Assembly: GCA_963796275.1 (NCBI GenBank)
Contig: CAWCKY010000003.1
Location: 480,001-544,000, forward strand
Direction: 5' to 3'
DNA from: an uncultured Acidobacteriota bacterium
GTDB taxonomy: Bacteria; Acidobacteriota; Blastocatellia; RBC074
DNA length: 64,000 nt
In this document: positions 1,483-20,445 of the stretch, piece after piece
Layout: every line of letters begins with the position of its first letter
Position numbering within the stretch: the first letter of the stretch is position 1
Notes under the pieces: generated by a model
What the model saw: only the letters and a program-made list of their open reading frames with translations
The model's database searches: none
Told to the model about the DNA's origin: nothing
Position numbers and translations under genes: made by a program

Positions 1483-3510
1483 GTGCGAAATTTCATTTTT
1501 TCTATAACTCTTTGTATGGTGCTTGGCGCGGCGAATGCCTTCGCGCAGCAGCAATTTACTAGTGATAAAGTAACCAGTGATAAAGTTACCAATGATAAGA
1601 AACGGATGCCGGATCAGTTGGCAGAGAAGATGGCGCAGCATTTGTCGGAGCAACTACCGCGACGACTGTCGGAACTTAAAATAAAGAAGATGCTCGGGGT
1701 GCTGGAAGCGGGGACGCAGTCTCCACAGCAGTCTCCGCAGCCTGTAGTGACGGGGACGGACGACAGGCGGCCCGTGTTGGTGTCCGAAGACGAACCGCTC
1801 GGAGCAGCGGGCAAGTCGAAGGATCGGCGTAAGCCCACACCGGAAGATGCCGACTTTATGGTGATCCAGGATCGCTGGCGCGTTGGAGTGCCGGAAGACC
1901 CGCGTTTTACTAATGGCAATATTTTTAATCCTTATCGTCAGAACGTGCTAAAGGGCGATTATCCGATCATCGGCAACAATATCTTCATGAACTTCGATCT
2001 GGTACTCGAGGGCGTTTTCAAGGCCGCCCAGCTACCGATCGGGCAGGCGGTCAGTTCAGCCAATCCGGGCAGTTTTGAATTCTTCGGGAGAGGGCGCAAT
2101 GATTCCATCGACGGGATAATGGTCTTCTCGTTCGACGTGTTTAAGGGAGATGCTTCGTTCAAGCCGGTCGATTGGAGATTTAAAGTAACTGGAATCGGAA
2201 ATTTCAATTTCGACAATTTCCGTGAAAACCAGGCCGCCAATATCGATGTGCGCGAAAGAATTTCGCGCCAGAAGAACTTCATTGCCGCCGAAGAGGCATT
2301 CGTTGAATATCGTCTCGGCGATACCACCAAGATATTCCCCTTCCTGCGCGGCAGAGGGAGTCAGGGCGGGCGCTCGCCGGAGTTCGATACGAGTTCGATT
2401 CGCCTCGGCGTCCAGCAATTCACGAGCGACTTCCGCGGATTCATCTTCAGCGATTCGAACCTCGGAGCGCGTATGTTCGGCAACATCGGATCGAACCGCT
2501 GGCAATACAACCTGGCTTACTTCAACCTGCTTGAAAAGGACACGAACAGCAAGTTGAATGCTCTCACGTTCAACGACACCGATTTTCGCAATCAGAACGT
2601 TTACATTGCGAACGTCTTCCGCCAGGACACTTTCGTGCTGGGATATACGACCCAGTTCAGTCTTCATTACAACGACGATCGTCCCAGCTTTAAGCTAGAT
2701 AATAACGGCTTCCAGGTACGGCCGGCGCCTCTCGGGTTGAACCCGCAGAATCGCGTGCGGGCCGGATATTTTGGATGGACGGGTGATGGACATTTCGGCC
2801 GGTACAATATTACGCATGCAATGTATCAGGCGATCGGGCGTGACACGTTCAACGGAGTTGCCAATCGCCCGGTTAGCATCAATGCCCAGATGGCGGCGGC
2901 GGAATTCTCGATCGATTTCGACTATATCCGCTACCGGGTCGCGGCTTTTTATGCATCCGGCGACCCGAACCCGACAGACGGCAGGGGCCGCGGCTTCGAT
3001 GCGATTCTCGACGCTCCGAATTTCGCGGGCGGCAAGTTCAGCTTCTTCAACCAGGAAGCCCTTCGTTTATTGCCGACTCCGCTTGCTATTAAAGACGAGC
3101 GAAGTCTGCTCCCGTCGCTGCGCACCAGCAAAATCCAGGGTCAATCGAATTTCGTCAATCCCGGTCTGACGCTTTACAACCTGGGAGTCGACGTAGATAT
3201 CACCCCGAAATTGCGAGGGTTCGCTAACTACAATTACATCCGTTTCAATGAGCCCGCGTCGCTTACGTCTTTACTCCAACGTGGCAATATCATCAGCAGA
3301 GATTTCGGCCACGATGTCGGTCTCGGGTTTATCTATCGACCGTTACTGAACGAAAACATCGTATTAACGGGTGGGGCCTCAACGCTGAGGGGCGGAAAAG
3401 GTTTCAACGCCCTCTTCACCTCGAATTGCGACGGTCCGCCGTTGCAATCTTGCGGTGCGTCGCAGCCGACGTTGTTCTCGACGTTTATGACAGCTCGATT
3501 CGTTTATTGA
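1483..3510 (+). CDS. Outer-membrane beta-barrel protein (alginate-export/porin-like)
   Basis: GGAGG SD before GTG at 1483 (track ORF starts 1456). Signal peptide ending AFA-QQQ, amphipathic beta strands, C-terminal beta-signal FMTARFVY. Confidence 0.7.
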   Translation: MRNFIFSITLCMVLGAANAFAQQQFTSDKVTSDKVTNDKKRMPDQLAEKMAQHLSEQLPRRLSELKIKKMLGVLEAGTQSPQQSPQPVVTGTDDRRPVLVSEDEPLGAAGKSKDRRKPTPEDADFMVIQDRWRVGVPEDPRFTNGNIFNPYRQNVLKGDYPIIGNNIFMNFDLVLEGVFKAAQLPIGQAVSSANPGSFEFFGRGRNDSIDGIMVFSFDVFKGDASFKPVDWRFKVTGIGNFNFDNFRENQAANIDVRERISRQKNFIAAEEAFVEYRLGDTTKIFPFLRGRGSQGGRSPEFDTSSIRLGVQQFTSDFRGFIFSDSNLGARMFGNIGSNRWQYNLAYFNLLEKDTNSKLNALTFNDTDFRNQNVYIANVFRQDTFVLGYTTQFSLHYNDDRPSFKLDNNGFQVRPAPLGLNPQNRVRAGYFGWTGDGHFGRYNITHAMYQAIGRDTFNGVANRPVSINAQMAAAEFSIDFDYIRYRVAAFYASGDPNPTDGRGRGFDAILDAPNFAGGKFSFFNQEALRLLPTPLAIKDERSLLPSLRTSKIQGQSNFVNPGLTLYNLGVDVDITPKLRGFANYNYIRFNEPASLTSLLQRGNIISRDFGHDVGLGFIYRPLLNENIVLTGGASTLRGGKGFNALFTSNCDGPPLQSCGASQPTLFSTFMTARFVY

Positions 3511-3725
3511 TGCTGCTGATTTACAACCCATCTTGGGTTTAGTGGAGATCGAGTAACACGGGGAAAAATGGTGAGATCAGAGATACGCAAGAATAACGAT
3601 TGAATTTGTTTTTCTCCGTGTTCCCCGATGGGGGACTCCCCGGTTAAACGCTTTAGTTTACGAAATAAATTATAACAAACAAGCTCAGAGTATAAGAGCG
3701 ATAGCTCCTTATAAAGGTTGAAGCA

Positions 3726-7829
<4,104 letters not shown>

Positions 7830-7857
7830 TCCACCATAAAATAAAATAGGTACTCAG

Positions 7858-7924
7858 AGCGGTAGCGAGCGGGCCTCCGGAACTAGAAAAAGAAGGGGGC
7901 AAGTTCGCTACCGCTTTTGTTTTA
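7858..7924 (+). repeat. REP-like inverted repeat, possibly also the terminator of the cytochrome gene
   Basis: AGCGGTAGCGA (7858-7868) and TCGCTACCGCT (7905-7915) followed by a T-rich tract. Confidence 0.55.
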
Positions 7925-8020
7925 TTGACATTATGTTTGGTCGTTTAACGCCCATGCCGAATCGCCGAGTAGCGGCAGGGTTGAGTTTAGGCTGGCGTTT
8001 CAGCCACGGCACCGGATCCA

Positions 8021-8356
8021 TCGTCGCGTAACGACGGAGTGATTTTAGCTGCGGGTTTCAAGCGCATTGGAATCTAAACAAATTAGAACTCTCGCAAATC
8101 CACCAAACTACGGGAGGTTATACATAATAATTAGCCTTAGCTAGATTCATCGGGCTTTCCCGCAGGGCATATAGGCTAGTCCTTTGAGGACTGGTGGCTC
8201 AGGAGACCTAATCTCGAGGGCGCTTTAGTCATGGGTTTGTATATAAGTCGGTAGAGATGCCTTGCGTCCCGAATGGACGCTCGAATTTAGCCGGTGGTGG
8301 AGCGAAGTGTAACCACCGGTATAGATCAAATGAGAATTTGCGTCCCGGAGGGACGC
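8021..8356. repeat. Cluster of REP-like short palindromes
   Basis: CGTCGCGTAACGACG (~8022), GCGTCCCGAATGGACGC (8264-8280), CCGGTGGT...ACCACCGG (8291-8319), GCGTCCCGGAGGGACGC (8340-8356). Confidence 0.55.
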
Positions 8357-8493
8357 CGGATCATCCGAATGCCTGAGGCTCAATAAATCTCACAATCTGC
8401 AACTGTATACTCGCCACCATTTGTCTGTGCGGCTATTTTCCGATCATTACCGCTCGCCGTACTGATCGTTCTCTGCTACTCTTTTCCATAGTT

Positions 8494-9495
8494 ATGAGCC
8501 TTCTCGAAGTACGTAACCTCAAGACATATTTCGCGACAAAACGGGGTGAGGCGCGCTCGGTTGATGACGTCTCATTCACGCTCGATCGTGGTGAGACGCT
8601 GAGCCTGGTAGGCGAATCTGGGTGCGGGAAATCGGTCACGGCGCTATCGATTATGCGGTTAGTCTCATCGCCCGGTCGCATAGTCGATGGTTCGGTGCTT
8701 TTCGAAGGGCGCGATCTGGTAAAACTCAGCGAAGACGAGATGCGCAGGATTCGGGGGGATGAGATCGCGATGATCTTTCAGGATCCCATGACGTCGCTCA
8801 ACCCGGTCTACACGGTCGGAGAGCAAATCGCCGAAGCGATACGCCTGCACCGCAGAGTTTCAAAGCGCGAGTCATGGAACCAGGCGATCGAGGGAATGCG
8901 GGATGTGGCAATTCCCGCGCCTGAGGTGCGCGCGAAAAACTATCCCCACGAGATGTCAGGTGGAATGCGCCAGCGGATAATGATCGCGATGGCGCTGGCA
9001 TGCGATCCGAAATTGTTGATAGCCGATGAACCGACGACTGCCCTCGATGTGACAATTCAGGCGCAGATTCTGGATTTACTGACCGAATTGCGCGAGAAGC
9101 GTAATCTGGCGCTACTGCTTATTACTCACGACCTGGGAATTGTCGCTGAAACTTCCGATCGTGTCGCTGTAATGTATGCGGGTAGGATCGTCGAATTGAC
9201 TCGGGTACGTGAACTGTTCAGGAATCCGCGCCATCCCTACACCGAAGGGTTGCTACGATCCGTTCCTCAGTTGGAGGAGCCGAATGGAGAGAAGAAACGG
9301 CGGCTGCATACGATCGAAGGCGTCGTGCCTAATCCTACGAACCTCCCCCCGGGATGCCGCTTCGCGCCGCGATGCGAGCATGCGCGGGAGAAGTGTAGGG
9401 AGGGTGAGATAAGATTGATTGAGATTGATTCGGGGCATTCAACGCGATGTATTCGAGTGAGTGAGATTTATCCTCAATTGCAAACCGCAAGTTAG
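8494..9495 (+). CDS. oppD: Oligopeptide/dipeptide ABC transporter ATP-binding protein (OppD/DppD)
   Basis: GESGCGKS Walker A, MSGGMRQR signature, [13 protein letters not shown]-terminal HPYT...GCRFAPRC. Confidence 0.92.
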
Positions 9496-9743
9496 TTCTC
9501 TCATGCTTCCTCCCCCACCTTGAAGCTGGCAACAGAGATACAGAGAAGAGAAGTGGGCGCGCGCTGTTGCCGCAAGCGCGATTTTTCGAATTTTAGCAGC
9601 ACGACTATTCATGAGTGGGAGGCGAAAATTGTTTCCTTTTTTCGATCGTTCTCCTACAATAAATGCTTGCCAACTCAAAATCTCTGTGGTCTCAATTAGG
9701 CCGTAAGCAGTTTCTATCCACCTCGCCACCGGAGGATGTACTC

Positions 9744-12700
9744 GTGCGATACCAAAAATATTCCGCTCGCATAGTCATTGGAGTGGTGTTACTCACCTGT
9801 TTTGTTTGTTACGACCGTAGCTTGAGCGCTTCCTCTCTGGCGCAAGCAAACGAGACCGAAGCAATTCGCAGTCTGGTCGGGAGATTCTTCGATTTATATC
9901 AACAGAAGGAATTCGATAAATTGATCGCTTTTTGGCACGAGAAATCTCCTTTTCTGGGTAGGAACAAAAAGGCCCTGGAAGAAGAATTTGCTGCATATGA
10001 AAAGATCGATGTGAAGGGCTTTGGCATCCGACTGATGAGGATCGATGGTGATAAGGCGACAGTTAGAGTGACGGTGAATTTAGTGCTGACCAAGGCTAAG
10101 CTCCAAAACATGACAGAAAAGATTTGGAGGGAGGGCATTCTAAAGCAAAACCGTACAATCGAACTAGTCAATCAGAGCGGAAACTGGAAGGTCTGGAAGT
10201 TTGTCATCAGCGAGGAGGAATTGGCAGCTGCAATCATAGCAGCACAGACAGAGGAGGAGCGGAAGGCGTTGATGGAGAAAGAGCCGGAGTTGATTACTTC
10301 CGACCTTGCTTCTGCGCTCTATTCTCAGATTTTATTTGCCTTCGTCAACAACGAAGTCGATTACAAACGCTCGATCACGATCAATGAGCTCGCCTACAAG
10401 CTCGCTGAGCGGATCGGTGATCGATTGGTAATGGCATATGTCCTCATATATACAGGGTACAGCTATGGTTGGATAGGTATGCCGGAAAAATCTCCGGACC
10501 AGGCATTGGAGTACTTTCGAAGTAGTCTTAAAATAGGAGAAGAGCATGGATTTAAGGATGTTGTTCTCAGATCAGTTATCAACTCAGCCATTCTCCATCA
10601 GGGTCTTGGTGAGCTTACGCACGCTGAAGAATATTATCAGAGAGGTCTGAAGCTGCTCGAAGAAGTGGGATCCCAAGATGGGATAATCCAAGTGTTGAGT
10701 AACTTAGGAACCATTCATCAGGTAAAGGGTAATTACGCCACTGCCTTCGAACTATTCTTGAAAAGCCTGAAGATGTCCGAAAGCCAGCTTAAGTCCGGAG
10801 TGAGTTGGGGTCGTCGGTCTAATGTCCTTATAAATATTGCAGGTATTTTCACTGCCCAAGCAAATTTCGAGCAGGCTTTGGCTTATTACCAGATGGCGCT
10901 TGAGGCAGCAGAAAAAGGAATTATGTTAGGAGATATTGAGGCGAAGTCTGAGAAGTTTCATGTGTTGATGGGGATTGGCAATATATATTTGCAACAGGGC
11001 AACCATTCTTTAGCGATGGATTATTTTAAGAAAAGCCAGAAGCTGATAGACGAGTTCGTAGATCAACTACCCGGTTCTAAAGATAGCTACACTTCGATGA
11101 TCAAAAAGGAGATGGCAGATGTATTGGCAGCAGAACATAATCTAGCTCAAGCAATCGCCAATTATAAGGAAGCCCTACAATTGGCAGACAAGGCAGAGGA
11201 TAAAGTCATTATGACATATCAATTGCTGGGTCTAGGCGAAATGTATTTTTTGACAGGGGATTTTCGCGAGGCATTGTCATATTCGGAAAGAGCAAGCGAA
11301 GCTGCCGAAAAACTTGGCCAATACCCTTATATGAATAGTGCTTTGGTAGTAGCCGCGAAAGCCTATCAGAAGCTTGGCCAACAAGAAAAATCTCGTCAGG
11401 CATTAATAAGAGCTATCTATATCACCGAGGAGTTACTGGAGCACTCGACAGGTGACGAATTAGACCTGCAACGCTCTTTTGAACGCGCTGTGGCGCCATA
11501 CCAGGCGATGATTGATTTCGAGGTTGATCAAAAACGATTCATTGAAGCCTTCTCTTACGCTCAACGGACGAAAGGTCGGACACTTCTTGAATTATTGCAA
11601 AATGGCCGAGTTGACATCAAAGCTGCAAATCTATTCGAGCGCGAAAAGGAGCAACAACTAAACCGCAAGATCGTTTCCCTCAACCGCGAAATCACAGCTG
11701 AGAAACTCAAATCTAATCCGAATGAAAAACGTCTGGTCGACGTCGAAGAACAGCTGAAAAAGGCCCGTCTGGAGTTCGAGCGATTCCATACCACTCTTTA
11801 CGCCGCCCATCCTGACCTCAAAGTCCAACGCGGCGAGATTCGACCGGTCACCTTTGACGACGCGGCAGGTCTGATTCCCGATTCCCAGACCGCCATGATG
11901 GATTTCATCGTCACCGACGAGAATGTCCACCTCTTCGTCCTGAGCAAAGACGGGGCCGGCAAGCCGATCTTGAACACATACACATTTAAGATCGAGCGCA
12001 AATCGCTGGCCGAGAAAGTAGAGCGCTATCGCCGCCGAATGGAGAACAGAGACTACGATTTTCAGGCGCTCTCCCAGGAACTCTATGGTTTGCTGATCAA
12101 ACCGGCACACAAGCAACTGCAGGGGAAAACCAATCTCATCATCTCTCCAGATAGCGTGCTGTGGGACTTGCCATTCCAGACTTTGATGTCACCGGAGCTG
12201 CGCTATCTGATCGAGGACGCCGCTATCTCATATACACCGTCACTTTCGGTGCTGAGAGAGATGCAACTGGCAGGCAACAAGAAACAGGCGCGGGCCAAAT
12301 CATCATTGCTGGCGCTGGGCAATCCGGCGCTGGGTAATCGGAGTAAGGAATTGGTTAAGTTTGTGAAGATGGATGCGGAGCTGCAGCCATTGCCGGAGGC
12401 GGCGGCACAGGTGCGCGCATTGGAGGGCCTGTACGGCAAGACGCGCAGCAGAGTGCTGACCGGTGCGGCGGCGCGCGAGGAACTGGTAAAGGAGCAATCG
12501 GGTCAATACCACATTGTGCACCTGGCGACGCACGGGATTCTGAACGACGTCAGCCCGATGTACTCGCACGTGATGTTGTCGCAGACGGCTGGGAAGAGCG
12601 AGGAAGACGGATTGCTGGAGGCCTGGGAGATGATGAATCTGGATTTGAACGCGGACCTGGTTGTGCTGGCAGGATGCGAGACGGCGCGCGGGCGAGTGGG

Positions 12701-12971
12701 AGCTGGGGAAGGGGTGATCGGGATGACGTGGGCGTTATTCGTGGCGGGATGCCCGAGGACGGTGGTCAGTCAATGGAAGGTGGAGGCATCGAGCACGACC
12801 GATTTGATGGTCGAGTTCCACAAGAAATTCAAGACGAGGTACGGCGATCCGCAACGGTCTGTCAGCACCGCGGAATCGATGAGACAGGCGGCATTGAGGG
12901 TAATGAGGAACCCGGAATATGTGCATCCATTCTATTGGGGCGGATTTGTCGTAATCGGGGATGGAAACTAA
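9744..12971 (+). CDS. Exported NTF2-like/TPR/CHAT caspase-family protease, copy 1
   Basis: GGAGG SD before GTG at 9744 (track ORF starts 9663). Signal peptide ...SLA-Q; NTF2-like segment ending SGNWKVWKF; TPR array; CHAT motifs LIISPD, HLATHG, VVLAGCETA, SQWKV, HPFYWGGF. Confidence 0.88.
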   Translation: MRYQKYSARIVIGVVLLTCFVCYDRSLSASSLAQANETEAIRSLVGRFFDLYQQKEFDKLIAFWHEKSPFLGRNKKALEEEFAAYEKIDVKGFGIRLMRIDGDKATVRVTVNLVLTKAKLQNMTEKIWREGILKQNRTIELVNQSGNWKVWKFVISEEELAAAIIAAQTEEERKALMEKEPELITSDLASALYSQILFAFVNNEVDYKRSITINELAYKLAERIGDRLVMAYVLIYTGYSYGWIGMPEKSPDQALEYFRSSLKIGEEHGFKDVVLRSVINSAILHQGLGELTHAEEYYQRGLKLLEEVGSQDGIIQVLSNLGTIHQVKGNYATAFELFLKSLKMSESQLKSGVSWGRRSNVLINIAGIFTAQANFEQALAYYQMALEAAEKGIMLGDIEAKSEKFHVLMGIGNIYLQQGNHSLAMDYFKKSQKLIDEFVDQLPGSKDSYTSMIKKEMADVLAAEHNLAQAIANYKEALQLADKAEDKVIMTYQLLGLGEMYFLTGDFREALSYSERASEAAEKLGQYPYMNSALVVAAKAYQKLGQQEKSRQALIRAIYITEELLEHSTGDELDLQRSFERAVAPYQAMIDFEVDQKRFIEAFSYAQRTKGRTLLELLQNGRVDIKAANLFEREKEQQLNRKIVSLNREITAEKLKSNPNEKRLVDVEEQLKKARLEFERFHTTLYAAHPDLKVQRGEIRPVTFDDAAGLIPDSQTAMMDFIVTDENVHLFVLSKDGAGKPILNTYTFKIERKSLAEKVERYRRRMENRDYDFQALSQELYGLLIKPAHKQLQGKTNLIISPDSVLWDLPFQTLMSPELRYLIEDAAISYTPSLSVLREMQLAGNKKQARAKSSLLALGNPALGNRSKELVKFVKMDAELQPLPEAAAQVRALEGLYGKTRSRVLTGAAAREELVKEQSGQYHIVHLATHGILNDVSPMYSHVMLSQTAGKSEEDGLLEAWEMMNLDLNADLVVLAGCETARGRVGAGEGVIGMTWALFVAGCPRTVVSQWKVEASSTTDLMVEFHKKFKTRYGDPQRSVSTAESMRQAALRVMRNPEYVHPFYWGGFVVIGDGN

Positions 12972-15900
12972 TCGATGAGAAAAGTAAGGCGAGAAAATCG
13001 TATGATTACACATTGCTTTACGATTGCATAAATTTTTACCATCGGTGATCACAATAGCAGTTCAGACCAGATTACGGTCAATGAAATTACGCTTGAAAAA
13101 GGCATAATTGTCAAAGCTATAAACGTCGCACTCTCGGGGGCCGCTCAGAGGCGATTGATAACATGCAACTCAGATAATTGAGCTTGCATAATCTTTGTTC
13201 ATTACAATCGAAAGAGGCTTTATGCGTTTCCTCAGATACCTTTCACCTCCTGCCTTCGGCATGCTGCCAATAATCTGCCTTGTATTGAACGGTTATGTCT
13301 TGGGTTTAACGCCGCTGACGCAATCGAGCGATTCCGATGCTATCCGAGTTTTAGTACAGCGACTCTTCGAATCTTATCAGCAGAAAGATCTCGAGAGATT
13401 GCTTTCCTTCTGGGGCGAGAAATCTCCATTTCTGGCCGAGAATAAAAAAGCCCTGCAAGGTGAACTCGCCGCGTATGAGAAGATTTCTGTGAAAGGTTTC
13501 GACATCCGCGACACGAAGATAGATGGCGAGAAGGCTACGCTGAGAGTGTTGGTTGAGGCCGCGGTCACCAGGGCTTACATGGTAAAACCCATTGAAAAGA
13601 TAGAGAAGAAGAGCAAGACGATCGATCTGGTCAAGGAGGGGGGAATCTGGAAGGTCTGGAGATTCACGGCAAGCGAAGAAGAATTGGCTGCTGTTATCGT
13701 TGCCACGAAGACAGAGGATGAACGAAAGGCCTCGATGGCCAAAGAACCGGAGTTGATGACGTCCGACCTTGCTAATGCACTCGCTCGTCAAAGTACATCC
13801 GACCCGGTCTATAAAATGGGCTATCAACATGCGCTTGCGATGAATCAGCTCGCATACGAAATCGCCAGGCAGGTCGGCGATCAATTTGCTATGGCAAACG
13901 CATTGTTGGGCGCTGGATACATTTATGGCTGGCTTGGGACACCGAAAAGATCGGCGGAATTGGCCCTGGAGAGTTTCCAAAAGAGTCTGAATATAGGAGA
14001 AGAGTATGGATTTAAGGAGATCATGGCCAAATCCCTGATCCGCTCTGGCGTTGTCTATACCGTCACAACAGGCGAGTATGCGAAAGCCGAAGAATGTTAT
14101 CAGAAAGGTCTCAAGCTGGCTGAGGAATTGAAAGATCAAGAGCTGTTATTCCTGGCCATGAATAACATGGGCGTCATCCATCGGGAACAAGGCAATTACG
14201 TGAAAGCGCTTGAGCTTTGGTTGAAATGCCTGAAGATGAGTGAAAACCAGCTTGACTCGGGAGTAGATTGGTATCGAATGGCGAGGGCCCTGCAAAATAT
14301 CGGCGGTACTTTCAAAGTCCAACGCAATCATGAACAGGCTTTGGCTTATAACCAACGTGCAATTGAAGCTGCCAACAAAGCAGATACGATGGGAGATCCT
14401 AACGCTAAATTGGTTATAGGGACTGCGCTGGCAAGCATTGGCGATGTATATTTGGAGCAAGATAAAGATTCTTTAGCGATGGATCATTATCAGAAAGGCC
14501 TCAAGCTTGCGGATGAGTTTGTGAATCCGATACTGGTTGCTAAACCCATGTACGTTTTCACAATCAAAGTGCGAATCGGAAATGCCTTGGTTGCAAAAAA
14601 AGATATGGTTCAGGCAATCACAACTTTCCAGGAAGCACTCGAGCTGGCAGAAAAATCAAATAATAAAACTCAGATAGCATATCCTTTATTGCGTCTAAGC
14701 GACGTATATCTATTGCAGGGAGATTATCGCAAGGCATTGGGTTTTGCTGAACGAACTATTAGTGAAGCTCAACAAATCGGTTTCAAAACAAATGTTTTTC
14801 GAGCTCTAGTGATAGCGGCTAAAGCACATCAGAAGCTCGGCCAGCTTGAAAAAGCGTATCTGTCATTGGACAGTGCCATCGACCTTATTGAAGAGTTACA
14901 CAAGCAGTCGGCTGGCGGCGCACTCGACCGCCAGCGTTCCTTCGAAGACTCTGCGGCTCCATATCAAGCGATGATCGATCTCCAGGTTGATCAAAAGAGG
15001 TTCACCGAAGCATTTTCATATGCTCAACGAGCAAAAGGACGAATCCTCTTGGAGCTCTTGCAAAATGGGCGGGTCAATATTGATAAATCAGCTTCTGAAA
15101 CGGAGCGCGAGCGAGAACAGCATCTAGGCAAAAAGATTATTTCACTAAACCGCGAAGTCACGGGTGAGAAACTCAAATCTCAACCTGATGAAAAGCGTTT
15201 GGCCGAGTTTGAAGAGCAGTTGAAAAAGGCGCGTCTGGAGTTCGAGGCTTTCCAAACCACTCTCTACGCCGCCCATCCTGAGCTCAAAGTGCAGCGCGGC
15301 GAGATTCGATCGGTCTCCTTTGACGATGCATCGGGCCTCATTCCCGATACGAAGACCGCACTCCTGGATTTCATCGTCACAGACGAGAATGTCCACCTCT
15401 TCGTCCTGACCAAAAATGCCTCCGCTCAACCGATCTTAAACAACTACATCATCAAGATCGAACGCAAATCGCTGGTTGAGAAAGTAGAGCGCTATCGCCG
15501 CCGAATGGAGAACAGAGACTACGACTTCCAGGCGCTCTCCCAGGAACTCTATGGTTTGCTGATCAAACCGGCACACAAGCAACTGCAGGGGAAAACCAAT
15601 CTCATCATCTCTCCAGATAGCGTGCTGTGGGACTTGCCATTCCAGACTTTGATGTCACCGGAGCTGCGCTATCTGATCGAGGACGCCGCTATCTCATATA
15701 CACCGTCACTTTCGGTGCTGAGAGAGATGCAACTGGCAGGCAACAAGAAACAGGCGCGGGCCAAATCATCATTGCTGGCGCTGGGCAATCCGGCGCTGGG
15801 TAATCGGAGTAAGGAATTGGTTAAGTTTGTGAAGATGGATGCGGAGCTGCAGCCATTGCCGGAGGCGGCGGCACAGGTGCGCGCATTGGAGGGCCTGTAC

Positions 15901-16437
15901 GGCAAGACGCGCAGCAGAGTGCTGACCGGTGCGGCGGCGCGCGAGGAACTGGTAAAGGAGCAATCTGGTCAATACCGCATAGTGCACCTGGCGACGCACG
16001 GGATTCTGAACGACGTCAGTCCGATGTACTCGCACGTGATGTTGTCGCAGACGGCTGGGAAGAGCGAGGAAGACGGATTGCTGGAGGCCTGGGAGATGAT
16101 GAATCTGGATTTGAACGCGGACCTGGTTGTGCTGGCAGGATGCGAGACGGCGCGCGGGCGAGTGGGAGCTGGGGAAGGGGTGATCGGGATGACGTGGGCG
16201 CTATTCGTGGCGGGATGCCCGAGGACGGTGGTCAGTCAATGGAAGGTGGAGGCGTCGAGCACTACCGACTTGATGGTGGAGTTCCACAAGAAATTCAAGA
16301 CCAGGTACGGCGATCCACAACGGTCTGTTACCACCGCGGAATCGATGAGACAGGCGGCATTGAGGGTAATGAGGAACCCGGAATATGTGCATCCATTCTA
16401 CTGGGGCGGATTTGTTGTAATCGGGGATGGAAATTAA
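12012..16437 (+). repeat. ~960-bp near-identical direct repeat covering the CHAT-coding 3' ends (12012-12971 and 15478-16437)
   Basis: Offset 3466 bp; about 18 substitutions counted by eye, only 2 non-synonymous. Confidence 0.9.
13222..16437 (+). CDS. Exported NTF2-like/TPR/CHAT caspase-family protease, copy 2
   Basis: GAGG SD before ATG at 13222. Same architecture as copy 1 with the His-Cys dyad (HLATHG / LAGCETA) intact. Confidence 0.88.
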   Translation: MRFLRYLSPPAFGMLPIICLVLNGYVLGLTPLTQSSDSDAIRVLVQRLFESYQQKDLERLLSFWGEKSPFLAENKKALQGELAAYEKISVKGFDIRDTKIDGEKATLRVLVEAAVTRAYMVKPIEKIEKKSKTIDLVKEGGIWKVWRFTASEEELAAVIVATKTEDERKASMAKEPELMTSDLANALARQSTSDPVYKMGYQHALAMNQLAYEIARQVGDQFAMANALLGAGYIYGWLGTPKRSAELALESFQKSLNIGEEYGFKEIMAKSLIRSGVVYTVTTGEYAKAEECYQKGLKLAEELKDQELLFLAMNNMGVIHREQGNYVKALELWLKCLKMSENQLDSGVDWYRMARALQNIGGTFKVQRNHEQALAYNQRAIEAANKADTMGDPNAKLVIGTALASIGDVYLEQDKDSLAMDHYQKGLKLADEFVNPILVAKPMYVFTIKVRIGNALVAKKDMVQAITTFQEALELAEKSNNKTQIAYPLLRLSDVYLLQGDYRKALGFAERTISEAQQIGFKTNVFRALVIAAKAHQKLGQLEKAYLSLDSAIDLIEELHKQSAGGALDRQRSFEDSAAPYQAMIDLQVDQKRFTEAFSYAQRAKGRILLELLQNGRVNIDKSASETEREREQHLGKKIISLNREVTGEKLKSQPDEKRLAEFEEQLKKARLEFEAFQTTLYAAHPELKVQRGEIRSVSFDDASGLIPDTKTALLDFIVTDENVHLFVLTKNASAQPILNNYIIKIERKSLVEKVERYRRRMENRDYDFQALSQELYGLLIKPAHKQLQGKTNLIISPDSVLWDLPFQTLMSPELRYLIEDAAISYTPSLSVLREMQLAGNKKQARAKSSLLALGNPALGNRSKELVKFVKMDAELQPLPEAAAQVRALEGLYGKTRSRVLTGAAAREELVKEQSGQYRIVHLATHGILNDVSPMYSHVMLSQTAGKSEEDGLLEAWEMMNLDLNADLVVLAGCETARGRVGAGEGVIGMTWALFVAGCPRTVVSQWKVEASSTTDLMVEFHKKFKTRYGDPQRSVTTAESMRQAALRVMRNPEYVHPFYWGGFVVIGDGN

Positions 16438-16506
16438 CAGCGGCTGAAAGGCGGGATGACTTTCACATTGCTCGGGCTTGTATGTTCGCCTATACGGCAA
16501 ATATTG

Positions 16507-17856
16507 TTACTTCAGCCGCCCACTGGTTACACTCGTCAGCAACTGTTTAACGGTCGTCGAGCCCGGATTGGCTTCGAGCAGTGCGCGAAATTCCGCAGCA
16601 GCTTCATCAAATAGACCCATTCGAGCATAAATCACACCGAGCGTAAGGTGGGATTTAGCATAAGCCTCTTTGATCTTTTCCAGAGCATCCACTTCTGATT
16701 GACCCAGCACCCTGAATCGGGCTTCCCGAGCGTCCGGTGAGGGCGATATCATCTCGCGATTATCTCTGATGGCTCTTATCTGCCAGGAATAGCTTCGATC
16801 GCGCGCCAGCGGCGGAGAGGTCCATTCGTTTCCCGTCAGTGTCTTACTCGAGACGATCTCACGCAGATTGTTCCTATAGATCGTAACGGTATAGGCGGTT
16901 GCCCCGCTCACCCGTTTCCAGCGAAAAGTCGGCTGAGTCGTCGCTACAACTGACCCTACCGGGCTGATCGGGATGAATGACCTTTGTCCCCCTCGTTGAC
17001 CCATCAACCGTTTCTGTTCTCCCAGGAGATATGAGAGCTCCGCACTGGCGTTGACGCGTCCATTACGCAGTGCGTCTATAACGGCTGCCTGATGTTCCGA
17101 GGAAACATATCGTATGCCTTCCAGTTCCCCTCGATCATCAAGCGCAACTCGACCGCCCACATCGTTAAGGGCGATCAGGGATTTAGGAGAAATATTCGTA
17201 GACTTTAGCCCTAGAGCGCGATCCTGCAGCTCTCTATTATCCTTACTCAGTTGCTCCAATTGTGCTCGAAGGTCTGTTATTGCCGAGGCGTTATTAGTGA
17301 GAGAATCATTCTGCAGTTGAAGCTTTTTCACCTCGTCCTGCAACCCGCTAATTTTCTCCTGTGATAATATGACAAACCAGATCAATAGTGCTGCGGCAGC
17401 GCCCGTCGCGCCCACTTGAAACGGCATTCGATAAGATCGCCAGAGCACAGATAACTTCTCCCAGAATTGAGGCTGTGGCTCAGAAGCATAAACTTTTCCA
17501 AACGCCATATCCGTCTTGAACTTTCGCAGATCTCGGCAAACATCATCGCACTCCGAGCAGAGTTCCAGATGAACTCCGGCAATCCCGCGTTCGAGCTCGT
17601 CCAGTTCACTGTCGACATATGCCAGAAGCTGATCGAATGATAAATGTTCAAGCTCTTCGTTTTCAGCATGCTTGAGATCGGTCCGCGCGAAGTTGTATGT
17701 CGATGTGAGCAATGTCTTAGAATGGAATTTCCCGTAACACTCTTCACAGGTGGCGAGGTGCTCGTTAAGTACCAGTATTTGCGCCGGCGGCATCGATCGC
17801 CTCCGGTAGCTCGCGATATCTTCTTCTGTGTAGTGTTTAGTCAAGGTATCCCCCAA
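16507..17856 (-). CDS. Transmembrane anti-sigma-like protein: two zf-HC2 motifs, TM helix, coiled coil, beta-sandwich, C-terminal TPR
   Basis: H...EHLATCEEC and H...VHLELCSEC; TM GATGAAAALLIWFVIL; heptad region; PTFRWKRVSGATAYTVTI...YSWQIRA; LGVIYARMGLFDEAAAEFRALLEANP. Start may be the TTG at 17844. Confidence 0.72.
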   Translation of the reverse strand: MGDTLTKHYTEEDIASYRRRSMPPAQILVLNEHLATCEECYGKFHSKTLLTSTYNFARTDLKHAENEELEHLSFDQLLAYVDSELDELERGIAGVHLELCSECDDVCRDLRKFKTDMAFGKVYASEPQPQFWEKLSVLWRSYRMPFQVGATGAAAALLIWFVILSQEKISGLQDEVKKLQLQNDSLTNNASAITDLRAQLEQLSKDNRELQDRALGLKSTNISPKSLIALNDVGGRVALDDRGELEGIRYVSSEHQAAVIDALRNGRVNASAELSYLLGEQKRLMGQRGGQRSFIPISPVGSVVATTQPTFRWKRVSGATAYTVTIYRNNLREIVSSKTLTGNEWTSPPLARDRSYSWQIRAIRDNREMISPSPDAREARFRVLGQSEVDALEKIKEAYAKSHLTLGVIYARMGLFDEAAAEFRALLEANPGSTTVKQLLTSVTSGRLK

Positions 17857-18044
17857 TTCCTACAATGGAATTACATAAATCATATATATTAAAGAGAGGG
17901 GTGGTAATGGATGGAAGCTTGATGAGGTCGCGATTATATACAATATTACTGAGAATGTTAAGCAATTTGTCTCCTCGACTTCAAAAAATTTGGGCATCTT
18001 ATCAACAATCGGATCCTCAATGAGATTGGACTTAAATAGTCTTA

Positions 18045-19184
18045 TCAAAAAGATCTGCTCAATTCTTTCATACGTTTAGCCAGAAGTTTCCTGGCAGAAA
18101 GTCGTAATCGCATGACCTTTCGCTTCGTCGTCCCCAGATGCATCGCTATTTTCATATCGTCCCACGGAAGATCGACCCAGATGGCGGCAAACTCTTCCGG
18201 AGGCAAGTTAAGGCACGCGGCGATTTCCACGATCGTGGCAATCCTCAAATCCGCCAATGAAATGATGAGCCCGCGGTCACCGGAATCTCTGTCTATCAGG
18301 TTCAGCAGTAGAGCAGTCCGATGCGGAAGCGGCAGTTTGCATATCTCCCTCCACAGAGTTTGCAGGTAGAGTCGTTGTTCAACTTCTAATTCCATGCTCG
18401 CCTTCTCGGTGGGAGGGGGGGCTTCCTGCAAAACAGCTGGGTCCGTGGTTACTAGTCCATTGAAAGAGTTGCGAATATCGATACCGCTCAACTCGGCGAC
18501 TATATTGATCAGCTGTGTGAACAGCACAGGCCTTCCTGCGGCATTGAAGATCAGCGCGAGCTGCTCGGCCATACTCTCTCGGTGATTTTTACCTGCTTTT
18601 AAATAAGACCGGACAAACTTTTCCGAACTCTCGTTCGATGTCATTACCGATAATTTCGAAAGCTGATCGCGCCAGATCGAAAATCCCCCCACCCATCCGA
18701 TCTTATCATCCTGCCAGAGCGCAAACTCCGTCTGTGTGTTCAGGATATAACGGATATGATCCTTTAACCGGCTATGCTGAAAATTTTGACGGCGCGAGAT
18801 TTCAGAACAAGTGTTATGTGCGATTACCGCGGCATAACTCAGAAAATCTTTTATGGCATGATCGATGTTGCCGTTCTTCAAGTCTTGCAATTTGGTCAGC
18901 AAACGAACGACTACCTCGCTATGCAAATCGTTAATTTGTTGGTCAGGCTTTCCTCCGTTCATTTTCGCGGACTGGGAACTGAGTCTATAGCCGATAATAT
19001 GCCTGACAACCGGATCGATACGCTCAGCGAAGAGTTGAGCCAATATCTGGCGGGATCGCTCGTCGTTCTCCTCCAGTAAGTAGGGGTGCAAGAGAACATC
19101 TATATCTGTGATTCCGCTCTGTCTGTCATCAATGTTCAGAGACATGCTTTCGAGTTTGGACCGAGATTGAGGTATGAAAGACAA
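18045..19184 (-). CDS. Atypical enlarged ECF-like sigma-70 factor
   Basis: Region 2-like INDLHSEVVVRLL...FLSYAAVIAHNTCSEISRR; region 4-like LWREICKLPLPHRTALLL...KIAMHLGTTKRKVMRLRLSARKLL; lies directly upstream of a zf-HC2 anti-sigma. Alternative ATG at 19145. Confidence 0.7.
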   Translation of the reverse strand: MSFIPQSRSKLESMSLNIDDRQSGITDIDVLLHPYLLEENDERSRQILAQLFAERIDPVVRHIIGYRLSSQSAKMNGGKPDQQINDLHSEVVVRLLTKLQDLKNGNIDHAIKDFLSYAAVIAHNTCSEISRRQNFQHSRLKDHIRYILNTQTEFALWQDDKIGWVGGFSIWRDQLSKLSVMTSNESSEKFVRSYLKAGKNHRESMAEQLALIFNAAGRPVLFTQLINIVAELSGIDIRNSFNGLVTTDPAVLQEAPPPTEKASMELEVEQRLYLQTLWREICKLPLPHRTALLLNLIDRDSGDRGLIISLADLRIATIVEIAACLNLPPEEFAAIWVDLPWDDMKIAMHLGTTKRKVMRLRLSARKLLAKRMKELSRSF

Positions 19185-19446
19185 ACATCTGATTTGTAGT
19201 AGTCTGGAACATCCACCTTCGCAAGTTTAAAGATATGCTATTATTTGCTGCCTATTGTATAAGTTGCAGCAATCAGATTTTTATTTTGGGGAATATTCAA
19301 AACGAAGCAATTGTATATCTTTCAACTACTTTGATCAAAGGTGTAAGCAATAACAAAGGGTTTCGATCCGCTTTCGGAATAGATAAATATCCTACTGAAG
19401 GCGATTTCACACAGAAAATGAAGGAGTCGATACTCCGCAAATCCAA

Positions 19447-20445
19447 ATGACAAATCCGCCTCTCGTCGAAATCAAAGACCTCAAAAAATATTTCCCGGCC
19501 TCCCACAGACAACTGGTTCGTGCGGTCGATGGGGTGACGTTCTCGATCGAGCGCGGCGAGACGATGGGGCTGGTCGGTGAATCCGGATGTGGCAAGACCA
19601 CCGTCGGACGCTGCATCTTGAGGTTGATCGAACCAACCGGCGGCGAGATCCGATTTGATGGGCGGGAGCTGGTGCACCTCGGGCGCGGCGAGTTGCGTGC
19701 ACTGCGCCGCCGGATGCAGATAATCTTTCAAGACCCGTATTCGTCGCTCAACCCCCGATTGACGGTCGGCGCGATCATCGGCGAGCCGCTCGTGATTCAC
19801 GGCGTGCGCGTCAGAAAGGCACGGCGCGAACGGGTGGCGGAGCTTATGCATGTCGTTGGGTTGGATCCTGCATATGCCAATCGCTACCCTCATCAATTCA
19901 GCGGCGGGCAGCGACAGCGCATCGGTATTGCGCGCGCTCTCGCACTGAATCCCGATTTCATCGTGGCCGATGAGCCCGTCTCTGCGCTCGATGTCTCCGT
20001 GCAGGCGCAGGTGGTGAACCTGCTGCAGGATCTGCAGGGAAAATTCGGACTGACATATCTCTTCATCTCGCACGGCCTGGCAGTCGTTAAACACGTTTCG
20101 ACGCACGTCGGCGTTATGTATCTCGGCAAGCTGGTCGAACTCGCGCCAGCCGAGGAAATATACGAGAACCCATTGCATCCGTATACAAAGGCTCTGCTCG
20201 AAGCAATTCCTGTCCCGGACCCGGACCACCCAAGAAATGAAAGGGTGAGAGGCTTACCTGGTGATGTGCCGAGCCCACTTGCCCCACCTGCGGGCTGCCG
20301 TTTTCACACACGCTGCCCCAAGGTTATGGAGCGGTGCAGGGTCGAAGAACCACCATATCGCGAGATCGCTCCCGGGCACTGGGCTGCGTGTTTTCTGCAC
20401 GAATCGGATGTACAATCGCAATCAGCCGTTAAGTCAATTCGCTAG
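19447..20445 (+). CDS. oppF: Oligopeptide/dipeptide ABC transporter ATP-binding protein (OppF/DppF)
   Basis: [60 protein letters not shown]. Confidence 0.92.

Follow-up and report, generated by a model that had tools for sequence, protein, structure and literature searches.

Can a caspase-fold protease that leaves the cytoplasm control a sigma factor that stays inside it? The question is raised by four genes in a 64,000-nucleotide window of the genome of an uncultured Acidobacteriota bacterium (GenBank assembly GCA_963796275.1, contig CAWCKY010000003.1, positions 480,001 to 544,000 of the forward strand; "the window" below means this whole stretch). Two tandem genes, here called CHAT-A and CHAT-B, encode paralogous proteins with a tetratricopeptide repeat (TPR) array and a C-terminal CHAT domain. 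On the opposite strand lie the gene for an enlarged sigma factor resembling the extracytoplasmic function (ECF) type and, directly downstream of it, the gene for a transmembrane anti-sigma factor. A first-pass annotation of this DNA had proposed that the CHAT proteins are exported site-1 proteases for the anti-sigma factor. Its reading frames were recovered at the same coordinates, as was the convergence that it described, with a gap of 69 bp between CHAT-B and the anti-sigma gene. The evidence collected here establishes that the module is real, conserved and functionally linked. The further proposal, that this is a three-component envelope module in which exported TPR-CHAT proteases act on the ectodomain of the single-pass anti-sigma factor and so release the sigma factor, has in our judgement a slightly better than even chance of being correct.

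Conservation of the module

An alignment of six sigma paralogs was searched against 400 other genomes of the phylum, 26 of which contain the sigma family. The comparison used 32 full-length matches from 24 genomes with up to 20 kb around each (partial matches, the sole matches of two genomes, were left out), and these loci were scanned with hidden Markov models built from the window's own genome. In 18 of the 32 loci, two of which (L045 and L052) look degraded, the immediate neighbour of the sigma/anti-sigma pair is a CHAT gene, and Pfam CHAT was confirmed in all eight of the adjacent proteins sampled. Chance would yield 1.66 such loci in 32, even if any CHAT gene anywhere in the 20-kb stretch is counted. 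The background for this expectation was the number of CHAT candidates per genome in a phylum-wide search with PF12770, which detected CHAT in 250 of the 400 other genomes; that tally includes the unpublished genomes G152, G024 and G049, and no locus used here comes from those three. Nine taxonomic families are represented among the 18 positive loci, in which the genes are arranged in four ways (convergent, divergent and two co-directional orders); genome G025 has just one CHAT candidate, and it is the one beside the pair. Co-occurrence of the three families across Acidobacteriota, which had been named at the outset as a check of the proposal, is therefore borne out.

The linkage involves a particular part of the anti-sigma factor. 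When the anti-sigma profile was split into its zinc-finger part and its ectodomain, CHAT proved to be adjacent in 17 of the 20 loci that have the conserved ectodomain (not adjacent in 3) and in 1 of the 12 loci that lack it (not adjacent in 11). At four loci (L063, L069, L073 and L074) the tandem zinc-finger N-terminus is kept (E 1e-23 to 1e-35), the ectodomain is a different one and no CHAT gene is adjacent; L069, L073 and L074 come from one taxonomic family and hence are not independent. Together, these distributions argue that CHAT tracks the ectodomain and not the sigma-binding part of the protein.

One might still suppose that the adjacency is without function, arising by chance in a CHAT-rich genome or by hitch-hiking in a mobile island. 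The window's own genome does contain 41 Pfam CHAT matches, and the module has the appearance of an insertion between paired ABC-transporter genes, with a GC content below that of the flanks. This explanation is nevertheless very improbable, given the excess of observed over expected loci, the spread over nine families and four gene orders, the co-variation of CHAT with the ectodomain and a docking prediction (described below) that passed its controls. Chance adjacency as such was rejected on the two comparisons, 18/32 versus 1.66 expected and 17/20 versus 1/12 by ectodomain.

The recurring families in 38 loci are the sigma factor (29), the anti-sigma factor (26) and TPR/CHAT (24), with the next cluster of open reading frames at 3. 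Because these three families alone recur, the unit is a three-component module without a conserved adjacent regulon gene.

The window's own genome has six sigma loci, the window itself and five paralogs, and CHAT genes or their remnants lie within about 5 kb of the sigma gene in four of them (the window, L002, L003 and L001). In L003 (C6:1724000-1743999), the sigma/anti-sigma pair is divergent from four TPR-CHAT genes in a row, one of them truncated or split, and a second anti-sigma copy, broken in two, stands at the far end of the row. L001 (C1:68000-87999) is a decayed module in which the sigma gene is intact, the anti-sigma gene is split into two reading frames and the CHAT fragments measure 88-110 aa; its neighbours include an IS66 Orf2-like gene and a gene resembling the type VI secretion system (T6SS) immunity gene Tdi1. 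In L002 (C1:1286000-1305999), PAAR, Rhs-repeat and RHS-core reading frames at 2907-7122, a split T6SS-type Rhs protein, lie upstream of the paralogous sigma/anti-sigma/CHAT module.

Table 1. Features of the module and its flanks (positions within the window)
Feature	Position	Strand	Basis or remark
OppD-like ABC ATPase, left flank of the apparent insertion	8494..9495	+	Pfam ABC_tran and oligo_HPY
CHAT-A, probably exported NTF2-like/TPR/CHAT protease	9744..12971	+	open reading frame; Pfam CHAT; alternative ATG start 9663
CHAT-A, signal-peptide-like leader	9744..9848	+	hydropathy and sequence reading: basic n-region, 14-residue hydrophobic core, AQA before NETE
CHAT-A, NTF2-like domain (weakly supported)	9834..10262	+	weak NCBIfam Rv0361_Cterm and SgcJ/EcaC
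CHAT-A, TPR array	10455..11462	+	Pfam TPR_12 (E 1.3e-32), TPR_1, TPR_2 and others
CHAT-A, CHAT (caspase-fold) domain	12063..12962	+	Pfam, residues 801-1100
CHAT-A, catalytic codons	His 12531-12533, Cys 12675-12677	+	HLATHG and AGCETA
CHAT-B, probably exported paralogous NTF2-like/TPR/CHAT protease	13222..16437	+	open reading frame; Pfam CHAT; alternative TTG start 13195
CHAT-B, catalytic codons	His 15997-15999, Cys 16141-16143	+	
Near-identical tract of CHAT-A and CHAT-B	12012..12971 vs 15478-16437	+	18 mismatches in 960 nt, 2 amino-acid changes
Single-pass transmembrane anti-sigma factor, 449 aa	16507..17856	-	open reading frame; zf-HC2 above cut-off; family alignment; model
Anti-sigma, C-terminal TPR-like helical hairpins, residues 386-446	16519..16701	-	Pfam TPR_2 E 6.9e-5, below cut-off; model helices
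Anti-sigma, FN3/Ig-like beta-sandwich, residues 296-383	16708..16971	-	predicted docking surface for CHAT 764-774
Anti-sigma, exposed low-confidence ectodomain loop, residues 279-295	16972..17022	-	proposed CHAT cleavage site; pLDDT 48 for block 281-290
Anti-sigma, conserved tripeptide L284-M285-G286 in the loop	16999-17007	-	
Anti-sigma, transmembrane helix, residues 148-165	17362..17415	-	hydropathy; followed by coiled coil to about residue 214
Anti-sigma, two tandem zinc-binding anti-sigma motifs, predicted cytoplasmic	17548..17835	-	near-invariant columns in 22 sequences
Enlarged ECF-like sigma factor, 379 aa from TTG 19184	18045..19184	-	open reading frame; model
Sigma, sigma4-like domain, residues 265-379	18048..18392	-	VIA-align to E. 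coli sigmaE region 4
Sigma, extra structured middle domain, residues 134-260	18405..18785	-	two beta hairpins and helices, pLDDT mostly 75-95
Sigma, sigma2-like domain, residues 28-133	18786..19103	-	VIA-align to ShbA, SigK, SigW and SigC
OppF-like ABC ATPase, right flank of the apparent insertion	19447..20445	+	Pfam ABC_tran and oligo_HPY

The anti-sigma factor and its predicted complex with CHAT

The anti-sigma factor matches zf-HC2 with E 1.3e-5 (25.6 bits, cut-off 22.2). Two sets of zinc ligands can be recognized, H8 with H33-x3-C37-x2-C40 and H71 with H96-x3-C100-x2-C103, in columns that are at least 90% conserved in 22 homologs. The protein thus carries the ZAS (zf-HC2) motif in two copies, and the motif, together with the position of its gene directly downstream of the sigma gene, suggests that it may bind zinc and the sigma factor. 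A structural model (mean predicted local distance difference test, pLDDT, 82) places the parts in the order of two helical zinc-finger bundles, a transmembrane helix that runs into a coiled coil (one long helix, residues 151-214), a small domain, a loop, an FN3-like sandwich and TPR-like helices. The sandwich aligns with FN3 domains at VIA-align Z values of 9.2-10.3 (root-mean-square deviation, rmsd, 2.0-3.3 over about 85 residues). The earlier description of this protein, with N-terminal zinc fingers, one transmembrane helix and a coiled coil/beta-sandwich/TPR region, agrees with the zf-HC2 match, the hydropathy and the model. In most homologs, Pro-rich linkers replace the coiled coil.

The loop ahead of the sandwich is of special interest as a possible site of proteolysis. 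In the family alignment of 22 sequences, the tripeptide has L, V or I at its first position in 18, R (11), M (8), L (2) or K (1) at its second position in all 22, and G (17) or S (4) at its third position in 21. The loop is otherwise variable, so that L-[R/M]-G is its sole conserved element.

Structure prediction of CHAT with the anti-sigma ectodomain, proposed in the first-pass annotation as a way to examine the idea, gave a favourable result. The prediction paired CHAT-A residues 573-1075 (numbered from GTG 9744) with anti-sigma residues 166-449, each with its own alignment. The complex scored 0.77 (0.77, 0.75 and 0.78 in the individual runs), and the best of three controls scored 0.00. Of 157 solved complexes, 116 attain this mark, as do 2 of 215 mismatched pairs; the calibration is only rough here, because custom alignments were used. 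The runs had at least 88% of their contacts in common, with pLDDT of at least 80 for the partners and 84-96 contacts. On the CHAT side, these involve residues 928, 930-931, 976-977 and 979, which flank His930 and Cys978, as well as 1009-1018, 1057-1063 and the strand 764-774; on the anti-sigma side, they involve residues 279-287 (GEQKRLMGQ) and strands of the FN3 domain, with which CHAT 764-774 makes beta-sheet-like contacts. The prediction supports binding of CHAT to the ectodomain. With its conserved tripeptide, in a flexible and otherwise variable loop, placed by the model at the active site, the contacted segment looks like a cleavage site.

The same docking geometry would be expected if the ectodomain were a pseudosubstrate or tether, similar to securin, that keeps the exported CHAT protein inactive at the membrane or recruits it there, the real substrates being other envelope proteins or foreign proteins. 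In that case the protease would be what the sigma pathway monitors; alternatively, the CHAT gene would belong to the regulon, as an output or feedback element, and would not be the trigger. Separase and securin provide a precedent for pseudosubstrate inhibition in a caspase-type fold. Many CHAT paralogs exist without the sigma family, and CHAT, as the sole conserved neighbour, could equally be a local target of the sigma factor. Several results argue in the other direction. CHAT converges on the sigma operon at 11 loci (the window, L002 and 9 of the 32) and is there transcribed from a separate promoter, and a crude search found no common promoter motif upstream of the sigma and CHAT genes. The conserved tripeptide within a variable, flexible loop resembles a cleavage site. 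Finally, the fused relative DdvA (see below) behaves like a substrate of regulated proteolysis after removal of its TPR-CHAT part, according to the available portion of PMC11506125. On balance, a pseudosubstrate or regulon role is rather unlikely, and cleavage of the ectodomain by CHAT remains the preferred reading.

The CHAT proteins

CHAT-A and CHAT-B are each about 1,075 residues long and consist of a leader, a weak NTF2-like region, a TPR array and a C-terminal CHAT domain. The match to Pfam CHAT (PF12770) is very strong in both (E 4e-64 and 217.3 bits for CHAT-A, E 2.2e-64 and 218.1 bits for CHAT-B, with a cut-off of 24), and many Pfam TPR families match both proteins. The start of CHAT-A at GTG 9744, as annotated previously, is backed by a GGAGG that lies 8 nt upstream. 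The NTF2-like domain of the previous annotation fares less well: NCBIfam matches have E values of 0.0017-0.098, and the nearest atlas clusters are all NTF2-like (0.84-0.87) and can be taken as leads only, so that the assignment is a weakly supported one.

Both proteins were said to begin with signal-peptide-like leaders, and hydropathy, read together with the sequence as a heuristic for signal peptides, agrees: a hydrophobic leader is found at both N-termini. The hydrophobic segment is preceded in each protein by basic residues, an arrangement that would place the bulk of each protein outside the membrane. The same feature recurs across the phylum. Using as a measure a strongly hydrophobic 15-residue window within the first 100 residues, 15 of 17 adjacent full-length CHAT reading frames have such a leader, versus 1 of 32 sigma reading frames, and A-x-A-like motifs follow the hydrophobic window in many of these adjacent CHAT proteins. 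Within the window's own genome, such a leader is found in 22 of the 28 CHAT reading frames that reach 800 aa or more, and hence most CHAT proteins of this organism appear to be exported.

The intact His-Cys dyads ascribed to the two tandem proteases are also present, in the motifs HLATHG and AGCETA, and both residues are conserved without exception in an alignment of CHAT proteins (24 of 24) and in a further set (11 of 11). This invariance bears on the possibility that CHAT is a non-proteolytic co-sensor, with ligand binding shifting the conformation or oligomeric state of the anti-sigma factor without any cut. The size of the predicted interface (84-96 contacts) and the beta-sheet-like contacts between CHAT 764-774 and the FN3 domain would suit such a role, and the membrane-proximal coiled coil of the window's anti-sigma factor could relay changes in a dimer. 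A pure scaffold would have no need of a dyad that is invariant in all 24 partners, however, and most homologs carry Pro-rich linkers in place of the coiled coil. A co-sensor function of this kind is improbable, and proteolysis by CHAT is again the better account.

The two CHAT paralogs are related in an uneven manner. The near-identical tract of 960 nt (about 98%) contains all 31 of the predicted interface residues, and these are identical in CHAT-A and CHAT-B (31/31). Divergence between the two genes jumps sharply upstream of about position 12011, and the N-terminal 727 aligned residues, the sensor halves, are 55% identical. Such a pattern fits either gene conversion or strong constraint on a catalytic and docking half, with a sensor half that may diverge freely. 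It is also the pattern that one would expect for two inputs acting on one substrate, and in this respect the earlier proposal of two paralogs giving two inputs gains support from a common predicted interface joined to sensor halves of modest identity.

Other copies of the protein are dispersed in the genome. Close NTF2-TPR-CHAT paralogs adjoin DUF4394 genes, away from the sigma family, in L007 (C4:428000-447999), L009 (C3:857000-876999) and L010 (C6:1306000-1325999). Five full-length dispersed copies (in L007, L008 and L010) keep 84-94% of the predicted docking residues, versus 78-83% in the rest of the domain. In L011 (C7:718000-737999, at 4891-11134), a CHAT-TPR gene lies downstream of a canonical ECF sigma gene (Sigma70_r2, r4_2), a 267-aa reading frame without a family and a gene for a TonB_C protein, the four sharing one strand. 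This arrangement indicates that CHAT-sigma linkage in the genome spans more than one sigma family.

The sigma factor

The sigma protein has no Pfam match, and its match to TIGR02937 (E 2e-5, 24.2 bits) falls below the cut-off of 42.9. Alignment with the paralogs makes ATG 19145 the likelier start, in preference to TTG 19184. The structural model (pLDDT 84) reveals a sigma2-like domain that aligns with ECF sigma2 domains at Z 8.0-8.4 (rmsd 2.6-2.9, about 80 residues) and a sigma4-like domain that aligns with region 4 of E. coli sigmaE at Z 8.6 (rmsd 2.0, 69 aligned residues). These Z values are middling for helical domains; the lists from both structure searches consist almost entirely of sigma factors. 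Foldseek with the sigma model gave no match at E <=0.001, and its weak matches were nearly all sigma factors; the family profile, searched against solved structures, found no sigma factor at E <0.1. Among 37 family members, weak matches occur to Sigma70_r2 in 14, to r4 in 3 and to r4_2 in 2.

Between the sigma2-like and sigma4-like domains lies a structured domain of about 125 residues that is absent from canonical ECF sigma factors. With respect to ECF (group 4) membership, the protein has the sigma2 and sigma4 folds but neither a match to a curated model above its cut-off nor a short linker between the two. The previous description as an enlarged ECF-like sigma factor holds for the folds and the extra domain and stops short of formal ECF assignment on these two counts; as a description it is fair. 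The family profile of the middle domain matches the N-terminal domain of RNA polymerase delta weakly (five solved sequences, E 0.0016-0.0038). The delta domain is one that we take to be HARE-HTH, and a delta-like domain of this kind may possibly sit between sigma2 and sigma4, which would be unusual.

The family is large. A 37-sequence profile searched against 1.84 billion proteins retrieved 3,220 representatives at E <=0.001, 2,608 at <=1e-10 and 1,786 at <=1e-30; the 150 best representatives are 321-484 aa long. The close homologs are named "hypothetical protein" or "sigma24 family" and belong to Acidobacteria or Blastocatellia.

Relation to known systems

The first-pass annotation regarded the locus as a candidate for an undescribed system, a claim that needs to be narrowed. 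A periplasmic TPR-CHAT domain as proposed site-1 protease has been published for DdvA-DdvS of Myxococcus xanthus, in the available text of PMC11506125, and an ECF-CHAT neighbourhood is on record for ECF54, as found in the accessible parts of the PMC7826278 supplement and of PMC8999054. In a literature search, no description was found of a free-standing exported TPR-CHAT protein paired with a separate anti-sigma factor.

DdvA combines in one protein a zinc anti-sigma domain, a transmembrane helix and a periplasmic TPR-CHAT part of about 900 residues (PMC11506125, available sections). In the model put forward there, CHAT serves as the site-1 protease that precedes RseP and cleaves the linker in the other protomer, with the signal still awaited; fused DdvA-like proteins are reported, in those sections, only in Myxococcota and in one Comamonas. 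DdvA is the best solved match of the window's anti-sigma profile (8rot_B residues 7-112, E 9.2e-7; 8rlz_A, E 5.4e-5), and the best solved match of a profile of the CHAT domain alone is 8rot_B residues 832-973 (E 9.4e-7, compared with about 5e-5 for Csx29 and about 0.6 for separase). The 8ROT structure is identified as DdvA in the consulted part of PMC11506125. Solved structures yielded no match when searched with the CHAT domain as a single sequence, and the full-length CHAT profile was swamped by TPR matches. Because one DdvA chain is the best match of both profiles, DdvA is a fusion that links the two separate proteins of the module.

The likeness extends, as far as the available text on DdvA goes, to the zinc anti-sigma domain, the single transmembrane helix, the periplasmic TPR-CHAT part with a His-Cys dyad and the proposed site-1 role ahead of RseP. 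Unlike DdvA as described there, the window's protease and anti-sigma factor are encoded by separate genes on opposite strands, so that action would be in trans and not between the protomers of a dimer. Further differences are that the window's anti-sigma factor carries a pair of zinc motifs in tandem and an FN3/TPR ectodomain of its own, in which a loop is conserved; that the sigma factor, about 350-380 aa long, contains an additional domain and has no Pfam match; that there are two protease paralogs; and that the module has no cyclic oligonucleotide-based antiphage signalling (CBASS) or CRISPR genes nearby. Sequence comparison suggests that the module is related to the DdvA type without sharing its single-polypeptide architecture. 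It is most likely a split, trans-acting relative of DdvA that works with a new sigma family. When longer, fused homologs of the anti-sigma factor were sought, two unrelated long proteins and no CHAT fusion came up, which counts as weak evidence.

In the type III-E craspase (Cas7-11, Csx29, Csx30 and CASP-sigma), the TPR-CHAT protease Csx29 cuts Csx30 in a small flexible loop of its C-terminal domain, according to the available parts of PMC10028731. On the proposed mechanism, the module would resemble craspase, as depicted in those parts, in directing a TPR-CHAT protease against a flexible loop of a sigma inhibitor. Whereas craspase is cytoplasmic, RNA-guided and CRISPR-linked, the window's protease has export signals and the inhibitor is a membrane zinc-finger anti-sigma factor. 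No cas-related family was found among the window neighbours scanned, where CBASS and CRISPR genes were likewise not found, and none recurs in the 38 loci; PADLOC returned TPR matches only. The CRISPR independence suggested earlier is consistent with all of these scans.

ECF54 provides a second point of comparison. The accessible part of the PMC7826278 supplement lists CHAT/TPR (0.71 CHAT-TPR copies per ECF), subtilase and carboxypeptidase-regulatory-like neighbours for this group, and describes it, together with the accessible part of PMC8999054, as 100% Actinobacteria, without an anti-sigma factor and with a proposed proteolytic control. As in ECF54, so far as these sources go, CHAT-TPR genes are conserved near a sigma family, and further ECF groups with a CHAT context may exist. 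In contrast to ECF54, an anti-sigma factor is the conserved middle component (26 loci), no subtilase or carboxypeptidase-regulatory gene recurs, and the homologs are from Acidobacteria and Blastocatellia.

The module also has obvious parallels to the classical proteolysis of ECF anti-sigma factors (DegS/RseP on RseA; PrsW/RasP on RsiW): the anti-sigma factor is single-pass, M50 genes are present, and an extracytoplasmic site-1 cut is proposed to precede the action of a site-2 M50 protease. It departs from these schemes in its proposed site-1 enzyme, a cysteine protease of the caspase fold equipped with a TPR sensor in place of a serine protease or metalloprotease, and from classical regulated intramembrane proteolysis in that the predicted cut is far from the membrane.

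Proposed mechanism

In the preferred model, the anti-sigma factor, through its two cytoplasmic zinc-finger domains, would hold the sigma factor at the inner membrane. The divergent NTF2-like/TPR half of the CHAT protein may sense a signal in the periplasm, and the CHAT domain is predicted to dock on the FN3-like domain of the anti-sigma factor. Cutting of the exposed L-[R/M]-G loop (284-286) would then remove the FN3-TPR cap. By analogy with RseA and with the DdvA model, the stump would be trimmed and passed to a site-2 M50 protease, and the sigma factor released. Candidates for the last enzyme exist in the organism, whose genome contains 12 matches to PF02163 (M50) in seven reading frames (best E 2.9e-55).

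Several observations weigh against this model. A cut at residue 285 would leave about 120 residues of ectodomain. The stump that site-2 proteases normally accept is far shorter, as with RseA and RseP, so that the remainder would have to be shortened further. The complex score measures model confidence, and solved CHAT-substrate complexes exist (craspase-Csx30 and separase-securin), likeness to which may explain part of it. Among the 32 loci, 14 have no adjacent CHAT gene: contig ends truncate four of these (L048, L049, L050 and L062), so that ten can be evaluated, and three of the ten keep the conserved ectodomain. The tail probability of about 3e-16 for 18 of 32 overstates the independence of loci that are related to one another. 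In the window's own genome, L005 and L006 have no CHAT gene within 10 kb of the sigma gene, and five dispersed full-length NTF2-TPR-CHAT paralogs and one split copy sit away from the sigma family, arguing that CHAT proteins work in other contexts as well. Finally, in the crude search for a bipartite promoter motif, which covered the upstream regions of 37 sigma and 24 CHAT genes, the highest count was 7, within the range of 5-8 seen in shuffles.

A more comprehensive reading can be put forward, though with a chance of being right in full that we put somewhat below even. A sigma family missed by Pfam (1,786 representatives), with an extra domain between sigma2 and sigma4, would be run by free-standing periplasmic caspase-type proteases, each of which would cut a dedicated FN3-ectodomain anti-sigma factor at its L-[R/M]-G loop. 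The protease paralogs, the dispersed copies included, would combine divergent NTF2/TPR sensors with a gene-converted catalytic half and thereby feed different envelope signals into one transcriptional switch. If this is true, bacterial envelope signalling would have its first example of a site-1 protease cascade that is caspase-like and acts in trans.

CHAT caspase-fold proteases are abundant in soil bacteria. To our knowledge, almost none of these soil-bacterial proteases has a known substrate, and the module provides a candidate pair of protease and substrate, complete with a predicted cleavage loop, that can be tested. It carries the DdvA idea, in split form, into another phylum, and exposes a large sigma family missed by standard models. 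If the mechanism holds, it would add a new class of site-1 protease to ECF signalling and would point to duplication and gene conversion as a route to multi-input sensing.

Genomic setting

The four-gene module is enclosed by two oligopeptide-type ABC ATPase genes (8494-9495 and 19447-20445), the insert comprising positions 9496-19446. The corresponding ATPase genes are direct neighbours in all four relatives searched, with gaps of 14-24 bp in two genomes of the same family, and the GC content is 0.44-0.48 across much of the insert versus 0.52-0.59 in the flanks. A search around the module for terminal repeats or a target-site duplication found none. The module looks like an insertion that has split a transporter gene pair.

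Transcription signals were also scanned. The numbers of sigma-70-type promoters and terminators did not exceed those in shuffled sequence (14 versus 11.6 and 7 versus 10.3). A sigma-70-type promoter-like site at 17933-17961 on the minus strand matches at 11 of 12 positions and lies inside the 188-bp gap between the sigma and anti-sigma genes, where it could provide a separate transcript for the anti-sigma gene. Upstream of the left ABC ATPase gene, an open reading frame of 1,367 aa (3726-7829, plus strand) encodes LVIVD repeats and has a weak match to cytochrome c3.

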